A stretch of 64,000 nucleotides of DNA from contig CAWBBV010000007.1 in NCBI GenBank assembly GCA_963787125.1, positions 1-64,000 of the forward strand, in the 5' to 3' direction. Below are positions 3,090-11,571 of the stretch, piece after piece. The translations under genes and the position numbers were made by a program. The notes beneath the pieces are model-generated. The model saw only the letters and a program-made list of their open reading frames with translations. It had not been told where the DNA came from and searched no databases. How positions within the stretch are numbered: position 1 is the first letter of the stretch; each line of letters opens with the position of its first letter. The stretch comes from an uncultured delta proteobacterium. Lineage in GTDB: Bacteria > Desulfobacterota > Desulfuromonadia > Geobacterales > DSM-12255.

Positions 3090-3851
3090 ATGCTGACTAA
3101 GAGAATTATTCCCTGTCTCGATGTAACCGGCGGACGTGTGGTGAAAGGGGTTCAGTTCCTTGAACTGCGGGATGCCGGTGATCCGGTTGAGATCGCAGAG
3201 ATCTACAACGCTCAAGGTGCTGACGAGTTGACTTTTCTGGATATCACCGCTTCCAGTGACGGCAGGGATACCATGGTTGACGTCGTCCGCAAGACGGCTG
3301 AACGGGTCTTTATGCCGCTCACTGTCGGCGGCGGCATCAGAGTGGTCGAAGATATTCGCCGGATGCTCAATGCCGGTGCTGACAAGGTTTCAATTAATAC
3401 GGCAGCTGTCCATAATCCTGATTTTGTCCAGGAGGCGGCGCAGCGTTTCGGCTCACAGTGCACGGTCGTGGCGATAGATGCCCGTAAGGTGCCGGGAGAG
3501 CAGCGCTGGGAGGTTTATACCCATGGCGGGCGTAAGTCGACAGGGATTGACGCGGTCGAATGGGCTGCCAGGATGGAAGCTTACGGCGCCGGTGAAATTC
3601 TCCTTACCAGTATGGATCGTGATGGCACCAAAGATGGCTATGATGTTGCCCTTACCCGTGCGGTTGTCGATGCGGTCGGGATTCCGGTGATCGCTTCGGG
3701 CGGGGTCGGCACGCTGGAACATCTCTATGACGGTTTTGCCGTCGCCGGAGCGAGCGCCTGTCTGGCCGCATCAATCTTCCACTTCCGTCAGCACACTGTG
3801 GCTGAGGCAAAGGAATATCTCAGGGGCAGGGGGGTTTCGGTCCGACTATGA
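3090..3851 (+). CDS. hisF: Imidazole glycerol phosphate synthase, cyclase subunit
   Basis: [31 protein letters not shown] motifs. Confidence 0.97.
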
Positions 3852-4177
3852 ATGACGATACGCTACAGGTCCTTTTCAGAACCATCCTTCAGCGCAAGGC
3901 CCACCCGGCTGAGAACTCCTATACCGCTTCACTTCTTGCCAAGGGTGGGGACAAGATCCTCAAGAAACTCGGGGAGGAATCCACGGAACTGGTGATTGCA
4001 GGAAAAGGCGGGGTGCAGAGTGAGATAGTCTGCGAAACAGCCGATCTCCTTTATCACACCCTTGTGCTGCTGGCCTATCACGATGTGACTCTGGATGATG
4101 TCTATGCTGAGCTTTGCCGGCGTTTTGGAATGTCAGGGATTGAAGAGAAGGCGTCAAGAGGGGCTTCAGTTGTATGA
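3848..4177 (+). CDS. hisE: Phosphoribosyl-ATP diphosphatase
   Basis: [21 protein letters not shown] motifs. Confidence 0.93.
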
Positions 4178-4209
4178 TATTTGATGTTTCACTTGTAAAA
4201 GGAAAAACG

Positions 4210-4440
4210 ATGTTATGTCCATTGTGTAATGGCTCCATAAAAAAAGGGGCTGCCAATCTTCCTTATCGCCTTTCAGATTAACAACTCGTTGTTATGGTGG
4301 ATGTTCCTGCCCTTGTTTGTGAGCAATGCGGTGATGAATATATTGAAATTGCTGTTGTCAGAAAGCTTGAAAAGATGATTGAAAAGGGCAAGTCTGATGG
4401 TATCAGTATGGGATTTGTAGAATATGATCTGGCCGCATGA
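4210..4440 (+). pseudogene. YgiT/MqsA-type zinc-finger protein with in-frame stop (not in ORF track)
   Basis: Hand translation: MLCPLCNGSIKKGAANLPYRLSD*QLVVMVDVPALVCEQCGDEYIEIAVVRKLEKMIEKGKSDGISMGFVEYDLAA*; CxxC...VPAxVCxxCG; TAA at 4279-4281. Confidence 0.8.
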
Positions 4441-4489
4441 GTTAGACTCAGGCAGTGAATAAGTCTGTCAGTGGAAAGAATGAAAATAG

Positions 4490-4517
4490 TTGACTTTTCC
4501 CTCGCTTAGTGTAAATT
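4490..4517 (+). promoter_or_regulatory. Putative sigma70 promoter of the lipoprotein/CHAT operon
   Basis: TTGACT (4490-4495), 16-nt spacer, TAAATT (4512-4517); A-rich sequence upstream. Confidence 0.55.
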
Positions 4518-4546
4518 CCTCAAAAAAATATTACAAGGCATTTCTA

Positions 4547-4615
4547 ATGCACAGCCCACAGCCCACAGCCCACAGCCCACAGCCCACAGCCCACAGCCCA
4601 CAGCTAAGCATGTAA
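4547..4615 (+). CDS. Repeat-encoded leader peptide M-HSPQPTA-HSPQPTA-HSPQ-LSM (22 aa)
   Basis: ATG at 4547 immediately precedes the repeat tract; weak SD AAGG at 4535-4538; TAA at 4613-4615. Confidence 0.55.
   Translation: MHSPQPTAHSPQPTAHSPQLSM
4550..4604 (+). repeat. Perfect heptanucleotide tandem repeat (CACAGCC)x7 + CACAGC
   Basis: 55 nt of uninterrupted repeat read directly from the sequence. Confidence 0.98.
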
Positions 4616-4642
4616 GCAATAACTGCATATTCCCGCACGTTC

Positions 4643-4683
4643 AGACCTCCGGGGCTTTCAAAGCCTTAGAGGTCTTTTTGTTT
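4643..4683 (+). terminator. Intrinsic terminator/attenuator in the 5' leader of the operon
   Basis: Stem AGACCTCCGGGGCTT / AAGCCTTAGAGGTCT (one mismatch, two G-U), loop TCA, then TTTTGTTT. Confidence 0.8.
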
Positions 4684-4751
4684 GATAGTTACACGCCGAC
4701 ATTGGTTATCTGCCGATGAACAGCGATTATTTCTAATAAAGGAGGGTTAGT

Positions 4752-5741
4752 GTGAACAGATTACTTTTGCTATTGTTTGTGGTTGTAGCGTTTTGCTCAG
4801 GTTGTGCAACGGCGGTGGAAACGGTGGTGCCACCGTCATTCTCTTTCAAATGGGAGTCTGATGTTTCTCTAAAGTTGACGCAAGATCAACAAAACACCAG
4901 ATATGTGCCAAAAGATGGTATTGGAAAGGCAACTCAGGACAATGTCACAGTTGAAGTGAGTGATATTGTTTCATCACAAAGTGAAAATGATTACACAATC
5001 AAAGTCAAGGATGGCGAGAAAGAGCATAATTTTAGCGTATTTCCTATGTTGCTTGTTCTCAGAATAATCAATAACACCGATCATATTGTGACACTTGAAC
5101 GAACTATCGTAAAGATTGAGGACGACAAGCAAAACGATTACCCGATGATAAACTCAATTGCGGAAATCAAGCAGCAGTCAAAAGCAACTTTAGAAAGAAT
5201 GTATGCGGAGCATCTTAAGCAATTCAGGGAAACGTATTTGGCCGATGTTAAAGATAAAATCAATGGACCTTATAAAACTCAATACGATCAATTTGCTACA
5301 GATGTCAGGGCGAAAATGGCTAAAGAAGTTCAAATTCGATTTCCCGAAACTGAGCCTGGCAAAATAGTCACAGTGTATGGCCTAAATGAATATTTAAAAT
5401 TTTATTCGCCTGTAGAGGTTTATGCAAGGCAGAAAAAAGCTCTTGATGAGCGCAGTAATAAAATAGAGGCGCTTAGCAAGAGCATCGTTGAAAGATATTC
5501 TCAGCAAATCGATAAGAAAATACCTTCTAACATGAAAGGTGTTATAACCAGCGGGGTCTATCAGCCAATTAATATATTGCCAGGAAGAAGTGAAAAAGTA
5601 CTTGTACCGTTCAGCAAGAGAAAAGAGGATGAAGTAATCAAAAAAATCAATATAGGAATTTATGACCTCCCGACCATGGTGAACGAAGCTGGTGTGCCGA
5701 CAAAACGTGCAAAATTCAATTTTGAGATGGTGGCAAAATAA
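4752..5741 (+). CDS. Hypothetical lipoprotein (329 aa)
   Basis: GTG start after SD GGAGGG; signal peptide ending in lipobox-like CSGC; central helical region. Confidence 0.75.
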   Translation: MNRLLLLLFVVVAFCSGCATAVETVVPPSFSFKWESDVSLKLTQDQQNTRYVPKDGIGKATQDNVTVEVSDIVSSQSENDYTIKVKDGEKEHNFSVFPMLLVLRIINNTDHIVTLERTIVKIEDDKQNDYPMINSIAEIKQQSKATLERMYAEHLKQFRETYLADVKDKINGPYKTQYDQFATDVRAKMAKEVQIRFPETEPGKIVTVYGLNEYLKFYSPVEVYARQKKALDERSNKIEALSKSIVERYSQQIDKKIPSNMKGVITSGVYQPINILPGRSEKVLVPFSKRKEDEVIKKINIGIYDLPTMVNEAGVPTKRAKFNFEMVAK

Positions 5742-5761
5742 ACTATATGGAAGGAGAAAAG

Positions 5762-6082
5762 ATGAAGAAAATAATAAAGACAGTTTTCGCGGTGGTAATT
5801 GCAGCATCTCTGCTGGCATGTGGTCCAACGCATAAGCTAATCGGTGAGAATAAGTATAGCGTCAGGGCTGATGATTTCAACACGATACCAATTCTTCAAT
5901 TTTTGGTGCCAAATTTTGGGTGCTCTACTGCTGAAGAGCGTTTCGACGAGACTGCCTTAAAACTTTGCCATAATGGATTTGATGTGACAAACAAGTCTCA
6001 AACGGGTGGAACTAGTAAAGATCCTCTTTGTGTCGTATTTGGGGAGATTGCATGCAGAGCAGCCAGTAGCAAAGTCGAATAA
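5762..6082 (+). CDS. Small Cys-containing lipoprotein
   Basis: ATG 5762 after SD AAGGAG; MKKIIK...LLAC lipobox; four further Cys. Confidence 0.75.
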   Translation: MKKIIKTVFAVVIAASLLACGPTHKLIGENKYSVRADDFNTIPILQFLVPNFGCSTAEERFDETALKLCHNGFDVTNKSQTGGTSKDPLCVVFGEIACRAASSKVE

Positions 6083-6102
6083 AGAAAAAATAATGAGATT
6101 TT

Positions 6103-6140
6103 AAAAGGTAGTCGGATATGTTCGGCTACCTTTTTTGTTT
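6103..6140 (+). terminator. Intra-operon hairpin with U-tract
   Basis: AAAAGGTAGTCGGA-TATG-TTCGGCTACCTTTT then TTGTTT, directly followed by SD AGGAGG. Confidence 0.7.
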
Positions 6141-6150
6141 AGGAGGAACC

Positions 6151-7182
6151 ATGTACAGACTCATATTGATATTTATCTTGCTTGTGACCGGATGTGGAAC
6201 AGTGCAACGCACTACATCAAAAATTTCTTATGACGAAGTTGACTTGGGTAAAAAACTTCCCATGACTTGCCGGATTTCATTTGCACCCAGTGTTGACAAG
6301 CTTAAAGCTTCAACCAGTTATGAAATGAAAGTCTCCATAAATGACGAAAAACAACATGAGCGAATGGGTGTAGACATGGGGCCTTCGCTAAAAGAAAGCA
6401 TGATGAGTGCACTTAAAGGCCGTTGTACTGAAATAATAGACGAGAGTTCGGCTGTTAAAGATTCCGGTGCCGCAACATTTAACCCTTACAACACGACTTG
6501 TATTATTACATTTGACCCGGATCAACCGGTAGTAACCGGAAAAGGTGCCGCTGCCGGATTCAATAGCAAAACTCAGGGTGGCTATGCCCTGAAAATGAAA
6601 GTAAAAGTAACGATTAAAACAGTGGCCGGTGAGGTCTTTAGTACTGAGGTCTATGATGTAAAGGGAACAGGTGAGTTGGGAGGGGGGGGGGCTTTTGTCG
6701 GCGGAATGGCAGCAGCTTTGACGCTTGGTTTAGCCGCTGATGCTTCTGCCGGGCAGCAATTGGTAAACGGCGCTGAATCTTTAATCGCAGATCTTATCAG
6801 TAAAACATTGCGTTCATTAAATGCTGATTTTGTAGCTGAATTCACAGAATTCACAGTCTATTCCACAGCAATGAAGAGTAAATCGGTTAACGACTTGCAA
6901 CTGTTCCTTGATAAATATCCTCGCGGCAAGCGTGCCCGCAAGGTGCAGGCTGAGTTAGATAACCAGATGTATGAGTTTGCGGTATCCTCTAATATGCTGG
7001 AATCTTACATTGATTACCTGGAAAAGATGCCTAAGGGTAAATACCGTCCTCAAGTCAAAAACAAGGCAGAGCCCCTTATGTTTGCCGAGATAGCCAAAGG
7101 AAATCTGTTCTTCTGTGGAAAGTACAAGGAACTATTGCCCGATGGGGAGAATACCAGTGAAGTCAATCAAAAGTGTAAATAG
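6151..7182 (+). CDS. Lipoprotein with glycine-rich segment and C-terminal YL..YP.G-type helical repeats
   Basis: ATG 6151 after AGGAGG; lipobox VTGC; repeats LFLDKYPRGK, YLEKMPKGKY, YKELLPDGEN. Confidence 0.75.
   Translation: MYRLILIFILLVTGCGTVQRTTSKISYDEVDLGKKLPMTCRISFAPSVDKLKASTSYEMKVSINDEKQHERMGVDMGPSLKESMMSALKGRCTEIIDESSAVKDSGAATFNPYNTTCIITFDPDQPVVTGKGAAAGFNSKTQGGYALKMKVKVTIKTVAGEVFSTEVYDVKGTGELGGGGAFVGGMAAALTLGLAADASAGQQLVNGAESLIADLISKTLRSLNADFVAEFTEFTVYSTAMKSKSVNDLQLFLDKYPRGKRARKVQAELDNQMYEFAVSSNMLESYIDYLEKMPKGKYRPQVKNKAEPLMFAEIAKGNLFFCGKYKELLPDGENTSEVNQKCK
6682..6691 (+). repeat. G10 homopolymer inside the lipoprotein CDS
   Basis: GGA GGG GGG GGG GCT, currently in frame. Confidence 0.9.
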
Positions 7183-10159
7183 CATCTTCAAGCTGCTTCT
7201 GCTGGTTCCCCAGGTTTTTGTGCTTTGCTCATGTATGGTTAATGGCAAAGTAGTCATGAGGCCTGAGGATATCATAGCAAATGTTTCAGGTCGGACGGAA
7301 GATCAAGTCATTGCCACCCTGGAAACAAACTTCAACGCATACAAAAATGCAGCAACAGTCGTCAACGATTATCAGTCCGTCATAATTGCGGGGAAAAAAG
7401 CGCAAAGCGCGTTTGAGGATGCTTTTTCACTTTTGGGTGACAAGGATGGCAGCTGGAGAAGTCCGGTCTATGTTAAGAAAGAAGGGAATCAGGCTCCTGT
7501 TGTCAGTGACAAGACTAGAACAAATTTGACCAGGGGATATCTCGCACTCTTGCACAATATGGCGAGGTGGTCGCTGATAGTGAATGATGTGAACGGTTAT
7601 TACAGCTATATGAGCAGGGTTGTATCGCCAGACTCAAAACTTGTCTATTACAATCTGCTGGATTCTTCTCTTGATGGACCAGAGCAACTGGAATTCACGC
7701 TGCTCCACAGCATGGAAACAAGTTATCGATATTTTCAGGAAGGTCATATCGACGAAGCTGTTGCTATTGCCGAAATACTGAAGTTAAGTCTCGACCGAAT
7801 CACCAAGGATAATTCAAGGCTCTGGGATGTAAAGGGGGTGTCATTAGGTGTAACCTATCGTCATTTCTATAATTGCCTGATGTACATGTTGGCGAATTAC
7901 TACGCAATTTCTGGCGACTATACCAAAGCGGAGGATATGGCTAAAAACCTTGTTACACGCAGCAAGGATGCAGATTTATCTGTTCGGGCGTATATGTTGA
8001 TGGCGATTGTAAAGGAGCATTTCAATGAGTCCTACTACGCCAAGGCTTATGTAGAGAAAGCCCTTGGCTTGCTCAAAGAAAATAAAAACAATACGATTCC
8101 AGCCAGTTTCCTGGCATCACTTCCCTATGACTTTATTGATAAATATCTATCGGGAAATTCATGGTTAACCGAGATTTTGGATGCAAGGTATTCGGATAAG
8201 ACGACATCTGCTAATGACATGCCTTTCGGTTATTCAATGTTTGTAAATAACAACATTGATCTTGTTTCCGCCGGTATTTACCGGAGTTTTGGTAAACGTG
8301 ATCAAATGAATCAGTGTTTATCCAGATTTGAAAATGTTTTTACCCTTGACACTGTATTGGCCGTCAACGACTTGGCAATTTACACAAATTTGTTGGCTCG
8401 TGAGAAAGATTGGAACCGGATCATCGGCTTTGTCTGGCCTTTTATCGATGCCGCCGAATATTACCGGGAGATAATCGCCAATTCCAAATACGCTTCTACA
8501 GCTTTTAGCTCGGCTTCTACTTTGTTTGCGAATATGGCGCTTGCTGTTTACACTGCTGACGGGTCACGTCAGGTTGCGGCAGCGATGAATAACTGGCCGG
8601 TAAGCCTGGGTGAAAAAACTTCTGATAAAAACGAGGTAGTTTTTAAAATCATTCAACTGGCAAAGTCTCGCGGCATACTGAATACGCTCGTCAGTAAAAC
8701 AGCCCCGAAACAGTCCGCTAAGCTCTCGGAAGAAGTGAAAGTTTTCGAATCAAATAAGATGCGACTTATGCAGGATACCATCTACAAAACGACGCTTGAA
8801 CAGATCACAAAAGAAATTCTTCCGCATAAAAAAACCGTTCGAGCTGAATGGAAGAATATGAAAAAATCAATAATGGAAAGTGATGGCGGTGGCCTCGCCA
8901 AATCTGAATACAAAGACGTGCGTCTAAGCGCAAACGAAGTATTATTGGAATATTGCGTAGCCGCCGACAGTATCCTCTATTATACGATTGGCGACAGTGC
9001 CTTGAATGTGGGTGTAGTGAATCGAAGCTACGAGCATATACAAAAGATGATTCTGGCATATTACGAAATAGCCCAGAATCCTTTCAATCACATAGCCGAC
9101 GGAAATGCTAAGGATTCACGCGGAGTTAGTATCAAACAGCGCCCATCTTCGGGATATGTTGATGAAAAAACCGTTGCAATTGAGTTGTTGCAGTACCTTA
9201 TTCATCACGCAAAAATAGATACTTCCAAGTTGACACACCTTACTATTTCACCAGACAAAGCTATTGGAATGCTTCCGTTTGATGTGCTTTTACGCCAGTC
9301 CAGCGATCCCGCTATGCAAAAAGTCGATATTTCATATATTCCGTCGGCAACGGTTCTTGCCTTATTGGGGGATAACTTTTCAAAGTTTAGCAGCGATAGC
9401 CTCTTACTAATGGGAGACCCGCTGCCGTTTATCACGTCTGGAACCGACAGCACTGCGCAAGACAGCCAATCAGTTAACAATATCCAAGTGGCTCTGAGAA
9501 GCATTGTTGTTAAGTCCAAAAATCAACCCACGACTTCAGCCTCTAAAGATAAAACTGCTTCCCCCGCACCGTCGCTGTTCGAGAGAATTCCTTATACCGC
9601 TGTGGAAATTCAGCGGATAGACGCTGTCATGAAAGGGAAGGGATTCAAGACCGTTTCCCTGTTGGGCAGCAGTCTCTCAAAGGATAATATTAGAAAGGGC
9701 TTGGCTGGAAAACCAAGAATACTGCATTTTGCTACCCACGGTGTCATGTCCAATGAAATCCCTTATATATTGAATCCAACGCTACTTTTGTCAATGGCTG
9801 AAAGGCCAATTGATACATTCCTGCAATCTTCAGAAATTGAAAAACTCGATCTTTCAGGTACTGACCTGGTGGTGCTTTCCGCCTGTAAGACCGGAATAGA
9901 TGTAACTTTTGACAGTGAGGGAGTTTCCGGTATTGCCAAATCCTTTATGATAGCGGGGGCTAAAAACGTTCTCCTAACTCTGTGGAGCATTGACGACAAG
10001 GCAACAAGCGCCTTCATTGAGCAATTTTATACAGGTATCGCCAATGGTTTGTCTGTGGCTACTGCGCTGACAAACACGAGAAAGCAGTTCATAGCAGCTA
10101 CGGAATATAATCAACCATATTTTTGGGGCGGATTTGCTCTGTTTGGTAGAGGTTATTAG
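7157..10159 (+). CDS. TPR-like + CHAT domain (caspase/HetF-fold cysteine protease), probable lipoprotein
   Basis: C-terminal CHAT motifs ISPDKAIGMLPF, LHFATHG (His), VVLSACKTG (Cys), TLWSIDD, PYFWGGF; likely GTG start 7157 after GGGGAG gives a signal peptide ending in VLCSC. Confidence 0.88.
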   Translation: MKSIKSVNSIFKLLLLVPQVFVLCSCMVNGKVVMRPEDIIANVSGRTEDQVIATLETNFNAYKNAATVVNDYQSVIIAGKKAQSAFEDAFSLLGDKDGSWRSPVYVKKEGNQAPVVSDKTRTNLTRGYLALLHNMARWSLIVNDVNGYYSYMSRVVSPDSKLVYYNLLDSSLDGPEQLEFTLLHSMETSYRYFQEGHIDEAVAIAEILKLSLDRITKDNSRLWDVKGVSLGVTYRHFYNCLMYMLANYYAISGDYTKAEDMAKNLVTRSKDADLSVRAYMLMAIVKEHFNESYYAKAYVEKALGLLKENKNNTIPASFLASLPYDFIDKYLSGNSWLTEILDARYSDKTTSANDMPFGYSMFVNNNIDLVSAGIYRSFGKRDQMNQCLSRFENVFTLDTVLAVNDLAIYTNLLAREKDWNRIIGFVWPFIDAAEYYREIIANSKYASTAFSSASTLFANMALAVYTADGSRQVAAAMNNWPVSLGEKTSDKNEVVFKIIQLAKSRGILNTLVSKTAPKQSAKLSEEVKVFESNKMRLMQDTIYKTTLEQITKEILPHKKTVRAEWKNMKKSIMESDGGGLAKSEYKDVRLSANEVLLEYCVAADSILYYTIGDSALNVGVVNRSYEHIQKMILAYYEIAQNPFNHIADGNAKDSRGVSIKQRPSSGYVDEKTVAIELLQYLIHHAKIDTSKLTHLTISPDKAIGMLPFDVLLRQSSDPAMQKVDISYIPSATVLALLGDNFSKFSSDSLLLMGDPLPFITSGTDSTAQDSQSVNNIQVALRSIVVKSKNQPTTSASKDKTASPAPSLFERIPYTAVEIQRIDAVMKGKGFKTVSLLGSSLSKDNIRKGLAGKPRILHFATHGVMSNEIPYILNPTLLLSMAERPIDTFLQSSEIEKLDLSGTDLVVLSACKTGIDVTFDSEGVSGIAKSFMIAGAKNVLLTLWSIDDKATSAFIEQFYTGIANGLSVATALTNTRKQFIAATEYNQPYFWGGFALFGRGY

Positions 10160-10228
10160 GCAGAAGAGTTTTATAAGTTGCCACGAGCGGAAATAAAAGT
10201 TTGTTTGAAGATTAAATGGAGAATATCC

Positions 10229-11407
10229 ATGACCAAGTTGCTACCATTGGTAACCTTGATTTTCTTTTGCGCCATATCTCCAGTACTCGCCGGAGACTAC
10301 ATCAAAGTAGAATCAGAAGGCATCGCTTGCACAGAAGGCGCTGAGCTGCCGACAGAGGTAGAGCGCCGCGCCGTGGAAGACGCCAAGGAGCGGGCTGTAC
10401 AGCATTCCCTCGATCACCTCCTGAAAAGAATCCATCATGACGATACTAAGCATGAACGCCGCTTGAGAACCGAATACGCTCATGCCCAAGTGGAAGTGGA
10501 GCAGGAGCTGGAGAAGGAATGGACTCAGTCAGGGAAATGTTGCCGGATCCGTCTGTCTTTGGCAGTGCATCCAGCTGAGATTGATGAAACTTGGAATATT
10601 CGAAATGACGGTTCACAAGGGACTATTAATCGCCCAGTGTATGCAAGGGTTGTTGGGTTAGGGCCGGAAGGCAATGCTGGCGCAGTGGCAAAGCAGGAGC
10701 TTGGCGACGCAAAAGTTGTTGCCGGCGGAGATGCTCATTCAGCCGGATCAGAAAAGAGTGCAAAAGCCGCTCCGCCAACTGTCAAGCCACAACCGCCGAA
10801 GGTAATTCAGCAGCCAGCTTCACTCCCTAAAGTTGTCGCTATTAGCTCAGTGAGCAAACCTGCGAATCTAGCTCCGACAGCAGCGAAGACAACTACTGTT
10901 GGGAATGTCAGTAGCAAGGTAAGGAATCCATTAGATTCGCAATATACAAAAATAATGCTAGATCTTTGCGAGTACAATTCTGATTATAATAAAAACCATA
11001 GAGGCGTTGATATTAAGGTGCCAGATGGAAAGAAAGTTTATCCCATTACAAACGGAAAAGTAGTGGAAAATCACAAGGCGAAAAGTATATGTGATCCAAA
11101 GGACTCCTCCTGCTATAATAAGGAGCATTGGAATGCTTGCTTAATAGTTGAGCATGACATTTCAGGGAAGAAGTATTACACATATTATGCACATATTACG
11201 TCAGAATTGGAGAAAGGAGCTGTTGTGTCAGTCGAAAATTCTATAGGCACTACAAATATTGGTCACCTGCACTTATCAGTAAATAAAGAAAATAAAATCA
11301 ACTGGGGATATATTAATGAGGCCAGAAAAGAAGCTTGTGGAGAAATAAAAAATGACGGATGGCTAAGGTTTCAAGACGTGTTCAACCTAACGGGGTATAA
11401 GAAGTAA
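10229..11407 (+). CDS. Exported M23-family metallopeptidase with extra N-terminal domain and Pro/Ala/Thr linker
   Basis: Signal peptide MTKLLPL...VLA; HRGVD (HxxxD), YAHI and GHLHL (HxH) M23 motifs. Confidence 0.75.
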   Translation: MTKLLPLVTLIFFCAISPVLAGDYIKVESEGIACTEGAELPTEVERRAVEDAKERAVQHSLDHLLKRIHHDDTKHERRLRTEYAHAQVEVEQELEKEWTQSGKCCRIRLSLAVHPAEIDETWNIRNDGSQGTINRPVYARVVGLGPEGNAGAVAKQELGDAKVVAGGDAHSAGSEKSAKAAPPTVKPQPPKVIQQPASLPKVVAISSVSKPANLAPTAAKTTTVGNVSSKVRNPLDSQYTKIMLDLCEYNSDYNKNHRGVDIKVPDGKKVYPITNGKVVENHKAKSICDPKDSSCYNKEHWNACLIVEHDISGKKYYTYYAHITSELEKGAVVSVENSIGTTNIGHLHLSVNKENKINWGYINEARKEACGEIKNDGWLRFQDVFNLTGYKK

Positions 11408-11542
11408 CATGAATGCTTGTGAAAATTGGAGTTTTAGTTAATTTCAATAGTTTGAGGCCATTAGTGACGTGGGTGAGAACTGTTTTCGCAGATAGAAGCA
11501 GTAAGTTTTTGAACTGAATAACTATGTCGAACTGAAAAGATG

Positions 11543-11571
11543 TTGACAATTACTCTGTTCTTGCTTATCGT
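11543..11571 (+). promoter_or_regulatory. Sigma70 promoter for rpsU-cvpA-dnaG-rpoD
   Basis: TTGACA-N17-TATCGT. Confidence 0.7.

Follow-up and report, generated by a model that had tools for sequence, protein, structure and literature searches.

The locus described here raises the question of whether a tandem repeat beside a start codon can control a bacterial operon by changing the reading frame of a leader peptide. It lies in a stretch of 64,000 nucleotides (positions 1 to 64,000 of contig CAWBBV010000007.1, assembly GCA_963787125.1) from an uncultured delta proteobacterium of the order Geobacterales; this whole stretch is called the window below. At positions 4490-4751 of the window, an ATG is followed directly by a perfect array of the heptamer CACAGCC, then by a hairpin with a U-tract, and then by the start of an operon of five genes for predicted lipoproteins and other exported proteins. 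On balance, we think it probable that transcription is attenuated here through a leader peptide subject to slipped-strand mispairing, as established for the pil1 locus of Streptococcus gallolyticus. The further statement that the sequenced allele is OFF holds only if this model is right. The coordinates of the features are collected in Table 1.

The repeat and the reading frames of the leader

Tandem Repeats Finder reports the array with period 7, 100% matches and a score of 110; the next-best tandem array in the window scores 57. The array consists of seven complete CACAGCC units followed by CACAGC, 55 bp in all. It occurs once in the 4.2-Mb, 30-contig genome, where no other heptamer reaches four copies and the two three-copy heptamers are unrelated to it. 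Long non-triplet arrays of any kind number three in this genome.

The ATG at 4547-4549 immediately adjoins the first base of the array. The initial annotation had described such a fusion with about eight units, and 7.9 perfect copies are indeed present. An AAGG, which resembles part of a Shine-Dalgarno (SD) sequence, is located 8 nt 5′ of the ATG. The non-triplet repeat thus appears to reside in a short leader open reading frame (ORF) with a start codon and a ribosome binding site of its own, as is expected of a pil1-type locus, with an SD that is weak.

The length of the leader ORF depends on the number of units. As sequenced (n units), or with three units more or fewer, the frame leads to TAA 4613-4615, and the sequenced leader of 22 aa ends 27 nt before the hairpin. 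With n-1 or n+2 units, the frame leads to TAA 4605-4607, which is 35 nt before the hairpin. With n+1 or n-2 units, it crosses the whole hairpin and leads to TGA 4717-4719, giving a product of 59 or 52 aa. Two registers are therefore short and one reads through. All three outcomes, as well as the 27-nt gap, had been proposed from the letters alone, and recomputing them gave the same values.

The terminator and the operon start

The arms of the hairpin at 4643-4675 (AGACCUC.GGGGCUU and AAGCCUU.GAGGUCU) form 14 bp with a bulge, and UUUUGUUU follows through position 4683. The hairpin has a predicted energy of -20.6 kcal/mol (z = -4.42), and 0 of 200 shuffled sequences fold as well. These values bear out the initial reading of this region as a hairpin with a U-tract. 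A simple terminator scan overlooked the hairpin because of its internal bulge. It is the first strong terminator downstream of hisE and, as the intrinsic terminator of pil1 does, separates the leader ORF from the operon. Also as initially described, the SD of the operon (GGAGG, 4741-4745) and its GTG start codon at 4752 both lie 3′ of the terminator. Between 4684 and 4751, a scan with the sigma-70 consensus alone found no site with at least 9 of 12 matches.

Two further observations concern this region. A 22-codon ORF with a TTG start (4682-4750) begins in the U-tract, and its TAG (4748-4750) lies over the operon SD, one base before GTG 4752. This ORF is probably a chance occurrence. In addition, the terminator has a twin elsewhere in the genome (G000:C23:55728-55769) that is 86% identical (36 of 42 bases) and closes a gene pair. 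The twin is positioned after a PIN/VapC-like ORF and a helix-turn-helix (HTH) fragment, according to a translation read by eye. The two hairpins may be of one terminator type that the genome shares, or they may be left from related mobile modules.

Table 1 Features of the locus, with positions in the window and the basis on which each was assigned
Feature	Positions	Strand	Basis or remark
Inserted island, about 7.4 kb, between the hisE stop and the rpsU promoter	4180..11558		Comparison with same-genus genomes; GC content
Candidate sigma-70-like promoter, TTGACT-16 nt-TAAATT	4490..4517	+	9/12 matches; inferred start near 4524
Weak SD-like AAGG	4535..4538	+	8 nt before the leader ATG
Leader ORF as sequenced, MHSPQPTAHSPQPTAHSPQLSM (22 aa) + TAA	4547..4615	+	Predicted OFF frame under the attenuator model
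Perfect (CACAGCC)x7.9 array; minus strand is a (GGGCTGT)n G-quadruplex motif	4550..4604	+	Tandem Repeats Finder
Leader ORF extension in the +1/-2-unit frame, 37 stop-free codons to TGA 4717-4719	4606..4719	+	Predicted ON frame
Intrinsic terminator, hairpin 4643-4675 + UUUUGUUU	4643..4683	+	Folding compared with shuffles
Operon SD AAGGAGGG and gene of a 329-aa predicted lipoprotein (GTG 4752)	4738..5741	+	No Pfam or NCBIfam family
Genes of two further predicted lipoproteins (111 aa and 354 aa)	5747..7182	+	N-terminal LLAC and VTGC lipoboxes, by eye
Exported CHAT-domain (caspase-like) protein, 1014 aa, true start uncertain	7115..10159	+	PF12770, E 3.8e-50, residues 691-1011
Secreted M23-peptidase-like protein, 409 aa, last gene of the island	10178..11407	+	PF01551, E 2.1e-8; signal peptide by eye

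A model for a probable switch

Under the attenuator model, transcription would begin at the candidate promoter (4490-4517) and would also arrive from the his operon, which is unterminated, and the transcripts would carry a short ORF with ATG 4547 as its start and (CACAGCC)n as its core. Two of the three registers would halt the ribosome 35 nt (TAA 4605) or 27 nt (TAA 4613) ahead of the hairpin, so that the terminator forms and the five-gene lipoprotein/CHAT/M23 operon is off. The sequenced allele would be in such a register. In the third register (+1, -2 or +4 units), translation over 4643-4675 to TGA 4717 would keep the hairpin melted, so that the polymerase could enter the operon. Replication slippage in the 55-bp array would move cells among the registers, resulting in a mixed population whose states are heritable and reversible.

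The model builds on a static anatomy that sequence and computation show: the repeat with its ATG, the outcomes of the three frames, a strong terminator with no recognisable promoter behind it, the island and the predicted exported products. It would also depend on a useful rate of slippage, translation of the leader, a transcription start upstream of the terminator and relief of termination by translation through the hairpin, all of which we infer.

We estimated how often the layout would arise by chance at 200,000 random positions of this genome outside ORFs of at least 120 aa (10.9% of the genome). Terminator-like sites were taken from a catalogue of 1,262 sites, defined by a hairpin of -14 kcal/mol or better and at least six T in eight positions; the hairpin at 4643-4675 is among them. 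The frequency of a start codon that has an SD-like 4-mer and reads in from within 30 nt is 0.11, and that of an exactly abutting ATG is 0.015. A same-strand terminator-like site occurs 5-120 nt after a 55-nt tract with a frequency of 0.030, which becomes 0.0078 when a same-strand ORF start is required within the next 120 nt. The start codon with SD, the terminator and the ORF occur jointly with a frequency of 0.00087. Given this value and the fact that the genome has just three long non-triplet arrays, the layout is unlikely to be accidental within this genome. The extra demand that at least one register runs into the hairpin and the others fall short is not rare, with a frequency of about 0.3 by our own estimate.

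The number of units had no predicted effect on RNA structure. In ensemble folding with 0 to 14 units, the unpaired probability stayed at 0.29-0.30 for the operon SD and start and at 0.19 for the terminator arms. Moreover, the whole leader folds no better than shuffled sequences (z -1.56). Because the pairing of the SD and the terminator is constant, an RNA structure that depends on repeat number is unsupported, which leaves the reading frame or the DNA itself as the level at which the repeat could act.

Comparison with known systems

The precedent that the initial annotation had named, namely GCAGA repeats in a leader peptide upstream of a terminator at pil1, agrees with the cited report on S. 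gallolyticus (PMC3894217). As its sections on these loci describe, the GCAGA repeats lie within the leader ORF, and the leader of the low-expressing form ends 39 bp before the terminator hairpin. Isolates in which the leader stop precedes the terminator by at least 28 nt are mostly low in expression, whereas expression is high in isolates with a leader that extends to the edge of the hairpin or across it. Mutation of the pil1 ATG, added stops and deletion of the terminator gave results as the model predicts, and the pil3 locus has the same design with a 33-bp gap (PMC3894217).

As described for pil1 and pil3 (PMC3894217), the locus has a promoter, a short leader ORF with a non-triplet repeat, an intrinsic terminator and an operon in that order, although the promoter here is a candidate. 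The gap in the OFF frames is 27 and 35 nt here, compared to 39 or 33 nt in the streptococcal loci. The sequenced stop is located well before the hairpin, at the edge of the published limit of 28 nt, and an out-of-frame change by +1 or -2 units would move the stop beyond the hairpin. Such gain or loss of units extends the ORF into or through the hairpin in pil1 and pil3 as well (PMC3894217). The products are cell-surface or envelope proteins in both cases, and no trans factor is required in the streptococcal loci or, under the model, here.

The differences between the systems are also clear. The repeat unit here is 7 nt long and present in about eight copies, whereas the 5-nt GCAGA is present in 22 or 13 copies (PMC3894217). 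The host is a Gram-negative environmental bacterium rather than a streptococcus, and the genes concerned form a CHAT/lipoprotein island rather than encoding sortase pili. Unlike in the streptococcal loci, as far as these are described in the source, just one of the two out-of-frame registers is predicted to be ON, and the repeat is also a G-quadruplex (G4) motif on the template strand. Finally, the streptococcal system is experimentally proven (PMC3894217), whereas our evidence is genomic.

The proposed mechanism also resembles the leader-peptide attenuators of trp and his operons, in that the position of the ribosome on the leader ORF decides whether a downstream terminator forms (PMC3894217). 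Unlike those attenuators, as the same source presents them, the element lacks both an alternative hairpin for antitermination and a series of regulatory codons. What is proposed to act as the signal here is a heritable change of frame, as opposed to the supply of charged tRNA.

Attenuation by a leader peptide with simple sequence repeats is known from experiments in one species only, S. gallolyticus (PMC3894217), and our literature search turned up no other experimental case. All mentions that it found of leader peptide, repeat and terminator together came from the work on S. gallolyticus or from reviews that cite it. The initial annotation was aware of no such switch in Geobacter-like bacteria, and the search likewise found no work linking Geobacter with slipped-strand or phase variation.

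Evidence against the attenuator

A number of observations weigh against the attenuator. The promoter-like TTGACT/TAAATT reported initially is present with 9 of 12 matches, though sites of this quality are no more frequent than in shuffles: two sigma-70-like sites were found in 1.2 kb, compared to 2.6 expected. The putative SD of the leader is weak and no longer than a 4-mer. An open frame of 37 codons is not rare in AT-rich DNA, with a probability of about 12% per frame by our own estimate. In addition, this layout is being selected from a very large number of windows, among which some accidental cases must be expected. A search for sequencing runs listed four freshwater metagenome runs, with small shares (0.04-0.13), and no RNA run.

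Comparison to other genomes gives no help. The 329-aa lipoprotein that begins the operon is found in none of 40 relatives, none of 400 genomes sampled across the phylum and one of 238 other genomes of the order. A scan of metagenomes for orthologs found one truncated contig, which lacks upstream DNA, and there was no match among plasmids. The one genome of the order (G562) belongs to a different family and has the sole ortholog operon with usable upstream DNA. Its proteins are 70% (329 aa), 41% (111 aa), 70% (354 aa) and 52% (CHAT protein) identical to those described here. Upstream of its operon are a divergent XRE-type HTH gene (identified by eye) and an AT-rich promoter region. This upstream region has no heptamer and no terminator, i.e. 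the leader is not conserved there. Given this difference, the leader appears to be a lineage-specific addition, which is usual for contingency loci and gives no comparative support.

The heptamer itself is widespread in other settings. We scanned 185,579 species genomes for three CACAGCC units, which gave at least 119 stretches; 80 loci were fetched, and 20 arrays of at least 5.5 copies were inspected by eye. The loci come from Bacteroidota, Planctomycetota, Verrucomicrobiota, Gemmatimonadota, Actinomycetota, Pseudomonadota and other phyla, with several per genome in some metagenome-assembled genomes (MAGs), and most have no ATG in front. Among the matches listed, the order of start codon, array and terminator is convincing in 0 of the 20 inspected arrays. 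At least four of these arrays abut a downstream start codon (L018, L054, L067 and L081), and one (L069) lies inside a 369-aa ORF. Another locus (L060) had been flagged as having a start and a terminator, and was rejected by eye because it follows the end of a convergent nusB-like gene. Since the inspected arrays lack the layout in question, the heptamer has a life independent of leader peptides. The (GGGNNNN)n phenomenon looks wider, judging by these arrays, than the published case of GGGNATC. In the 40 relatives, CACAGCC is found as a single two-unit match in two genomes.

A search of the genome for other repeat-terminator leaders, which the initial annotation had suggested, yielded one array that looked alike and one with a different layout. 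The first is (ACAG)17 at G000:C2:42774-42842 (L008 7775-7843), which is preceded by AGGAGAGG-6 nt-GTG and followed by a terminator of -21.6 kcal/mol. The stops of its registers are 41, 13 and 9 nt before the hairpin, and a gene for a hybrid histidine kinase is downstream. However, a paralog on another contig (G000:C14:116740-117014) has the same terminator and an unexpanded CAGACGGATAG in place of the array. The stretch from the 3′ end of a transposase to the terminator is consequently the conserved end of an IS256-family element, and we rejected this array as a second example. From these sequences, the array appears to have expanded inside a small ORF, with an SD and a GTG start, in the 3′ end of the element.

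The second array, (ACCCTGAA)x14, is perfect and occupies G000:C24:157395-157507 (L007 8396-8508). The hairpin AATTCCCGC-ttgc-GGGAATTTT comes directly after it. The array is set in an intergenic region of 640 nt between divergent units, with a 213-aa ORF that has no known family on one side and a cusC/cusB/PD-(D/E)XK/cusA-like operon on the other. By eye, no start codon reads into the array on the plus strand, and it was therefore rejected as an instance of the same layout.

Two other properties of the surveyed arrays were observed. Many CACAGCC and related CCCNNAG-type arrays are located at contig ends, and some abut a start codon on the C-rich strand. Several shorter CACAGCC arrays are flanked by inverted arrays of related heptamers, with which a long hairpin could form.

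Alternative explanations

The repeat might instead belong to a class of (GGGNNNN)n heptamer arrays near gene starts and act at the level of DNA, through a G4 on the template strand and an i-motif on the other strand, or have no effect at all. The hairpin would then merely stop read-through from the his operon, the ATG and the frames would be accidental, and the operon would be silent or use an unrecognised promoter after 4683. We consider this explanation, the main rival, less likely than the attenuator, while noting how much is consistent with it. The minus strand of the array has a unit with one GGG and 7.9 tandem units, where at least four are expected of the class, and it ranks second in length among the genome's 70 G4 motifs. 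Longer still, with 15 G-tracts, is the minus strand of the non-triplet array on contig C24 described above, (GGGTTTCA)n. A G4 is predicted for our array, with a template-strand folding energy of -12.7 kcal/mol when G4s are allowed and -5.5 when they are not. According to a study of Xanthomonas and Nostoc (PMC4692102), GGGNATC heptamer arrays form G4s, are over-represented in non-coding DNA between aligned ORFs and are enriched upstream of ORFs on the antisense strand. Our array resembles these repeats in being a G-rich heptamer with one GGG, in non-coding DNA between ORFs of the same direction, with the G-rich strand antisense to the downstream ORF, although its unit sequence differs and its G4 is predicted only. 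Heptamer families have also been described, in the sources cited, in Beggiatoaceae (PMC4679880) and in Geobacter metallireducens (PMC2700814). The wide distribution of CACAGCC arrays fits this explanation as well. Because the his operon of the relatives has no terminator of its own, an insulator at the edge of the island is plausible, and a weak promoter-like TTGGTT-17-GATTAT with 7 of 12 matches can be seen by eye at 4703-4731. However, the GGGNATC class is described as abundant genome-wide with a preference for four units (PMC4692102), whereas CACAGCC forms a single, longer array in this genome. Nor is our array within about 50 bp upstream of an ORF or within 50 bp after a stop codon, though its orientation fits: it is 148 nt from GTG 4752, with the terminator in between, and begins 110 nt after the stop of the upstream ORF at 4440. 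The explanation also needs four coincidences, namely an ATG that adjoins the array, an SD-like 4-mer ahead of it, the pattern of the frames and the lack of a promoter after the terminator, and the joint layout has a frequency of about 9e-4. In any case, slippage would alter the frame of the leader no matter how the array arose, and a G4 and a switch are not mutually exclusive.

Two other explanations, both of which place the effect of the repeat in RNA, seem to us highly improbable. One is a switch like that of hmw1A and hmw2A in Haemophilus influenzae, where an (ATCTTTC)n array is reported to supply one side of a long hairpin that RNase III cleaves, with expression dropping progressively as repeat number rises (PMC12721329). 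Here, the transcribed array would pair with a downstream G-rich stretch and give graded expression through RNA structure and RNase III. As in that system (PMC12721329), a heptamer array, whose repeat number would be the variable, is located upstream of a predicted surface-protein gene, in what is probably a transcribed 5′ untranslated region (UTR), and one repeat unit pairs with the SD/start region when 4520-4760 is folded to minimum energy. This pairing contrasts with the unpaired probabilities reported above, which are the same for 0 to 14 units, and neither the minimum-energy nor the centroid fold has a long hairpin in which the repeats form one arm and a G-rich partner the other; the z score is just -1.56. 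Moreover, the locus has a leader ORF and a terminator, unlike hmw1A and hmw2A as the source describes them (PMC12721329), and its output is predicted to be periodic in n modulo 3. It would surprise us just as much if the region from the promoter at 4490-4517 to the terminator at 4643-4683 encoded a free-standing small RNA (about 160 nt) with the C-rich repeat as its trans-acting part, e.g. a sponge for a protein or for a G-rich RNA, and the operon were expressed separately. The promoter-like site and the strong terminator do lie about 160 nt apart on the same strand, and the repeat RNA is predicted to be unstructured and accessible (centroid fold; -2.7 kcal/mol for the plus strand with DNA parameters). 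Against this, the RNA matches no Rfam family, is present once in the genome and lacks relatives elsewhere, and its full length is no more stably folded than shuffled sequences (z -1.56). The G-rich complement of the repeat is also absent from the genome (0 reverse matches), and the operon would still require a promoter, of which none was seen.

The island and its genes

The attenuator candidate and its operon lie in an island that interrupts conserved genes. The genes hisB, hisH, hisA, hisF and hisE are located 5′ of the island, and rpsU (identified by eye), cvpA, dnaG and rpoD are located 3′ of it. Three same-genus genomes (G003, G004 and G005) have the order hisE-rpsU-cvpA-dnaG without an insert. 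Homology to the same-genus genomes ends at about 4155-4158 and restarts at about 11559-11570, which identifies the intervening DNA as inserted. The GC content of the island is 38-48%, compared to 49-55% in the flanks. In all three genomes the rpsU promoter lies within a few bases of hisE, with no terminator between. Transcripts of the his operon would therefore enter the island, where the hairpin at 4643-4675 is the first barrier.

By eye, all five island proteins have an N-terminal signal or a lipobox-like sequence; the island encodes no regulator. In G562, the divergent XRE-type gene occupies the position that the leader has here, and this contrast counts in favour of the attenuator. Searches of the five proteins against Pfam, NCBIfam and PADLOC, of the 329- and 354-aa proteins against the Atlas and of the CHAT protein against PDB sequences found no families beyond CHAT, M23 and "lipoprotein". 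The CHAT protein weakly matches one solved CHAT protein in the PDB. The Atlas clusters nearest to the 329-aa lipoprotein are named "lipoprotein" or "hypothetical protein", and its family has nine relatives among 5.8 billion proteins. One of these relatives is labelled by its source as coming from a Desulfuromonadales MAG.

A homopolymer of ten G (6682-6691) is present within the gene for the 354-aa lipoprotein, where it encodes LGGGG. The ortholog in the genome of the other family has LEAGG at this place, and G-runs of at least seven are absent there across 12 kb. The genome described here has eight G/C runs of at least ten, which is about the number expected by chance. Finding one within the 6.6-kb operon has a probability of about 1 in 80 by our own estimate and is mildly notable. 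The tract could be a second point of slippage in the same operon.

At the left edge of the island is a YgiT/MqsA-like zinc-ribbon ORF (4210-4440) of 76 codons with one in-frame TAA (4279-4281). When the TAA is read as X, the ORF has only sub-threshold Pfam matches (YokU, MqsA_antitoxin and DUF7479). It has no adjacent toxin partner. A search of 3800-5400 against Rfam found nothing relevant.

Implications

Our reading of the locus as a pil1-type attenuator leads to a broader suggestion, which we put forward tentatively and with some doubt. A working switch of this type may exist outside streptococci, built from a heptamer, as a self-contained cis-regulator that travels with an acquired CHAT-protease/lipoprotein envelope island in a Gram-negative, environmental, Desulfuromonadales-like host. 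The orthologous operon elsewhere would rely on a conventional XRE-type regulator instead. The prediction is sharp, in that output would be set by the repeat number modulo 3 and by one ATG.

If this is true, the heptamer would come from a pan-bacterial pool of (GGGNNNN)n arrays, and such arrays would be raw material from which frame-dependent attenuators arise repeatedly. The tract of ten G in the third gene could then add a second stochastic layer, and stochastic variation of the cell surface would not be limited to host-associated bacteria. Confirmation in a free-living sediment or freshwater lineage would indicate that the design is general and easy to evolve, and that a transferred gene island can be controlled by a portable unit that needs no regulator. 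It would also mean that bet-hedging with envelope proteins matters outside hosts, e.g. against phages, predators or changing surfaces.

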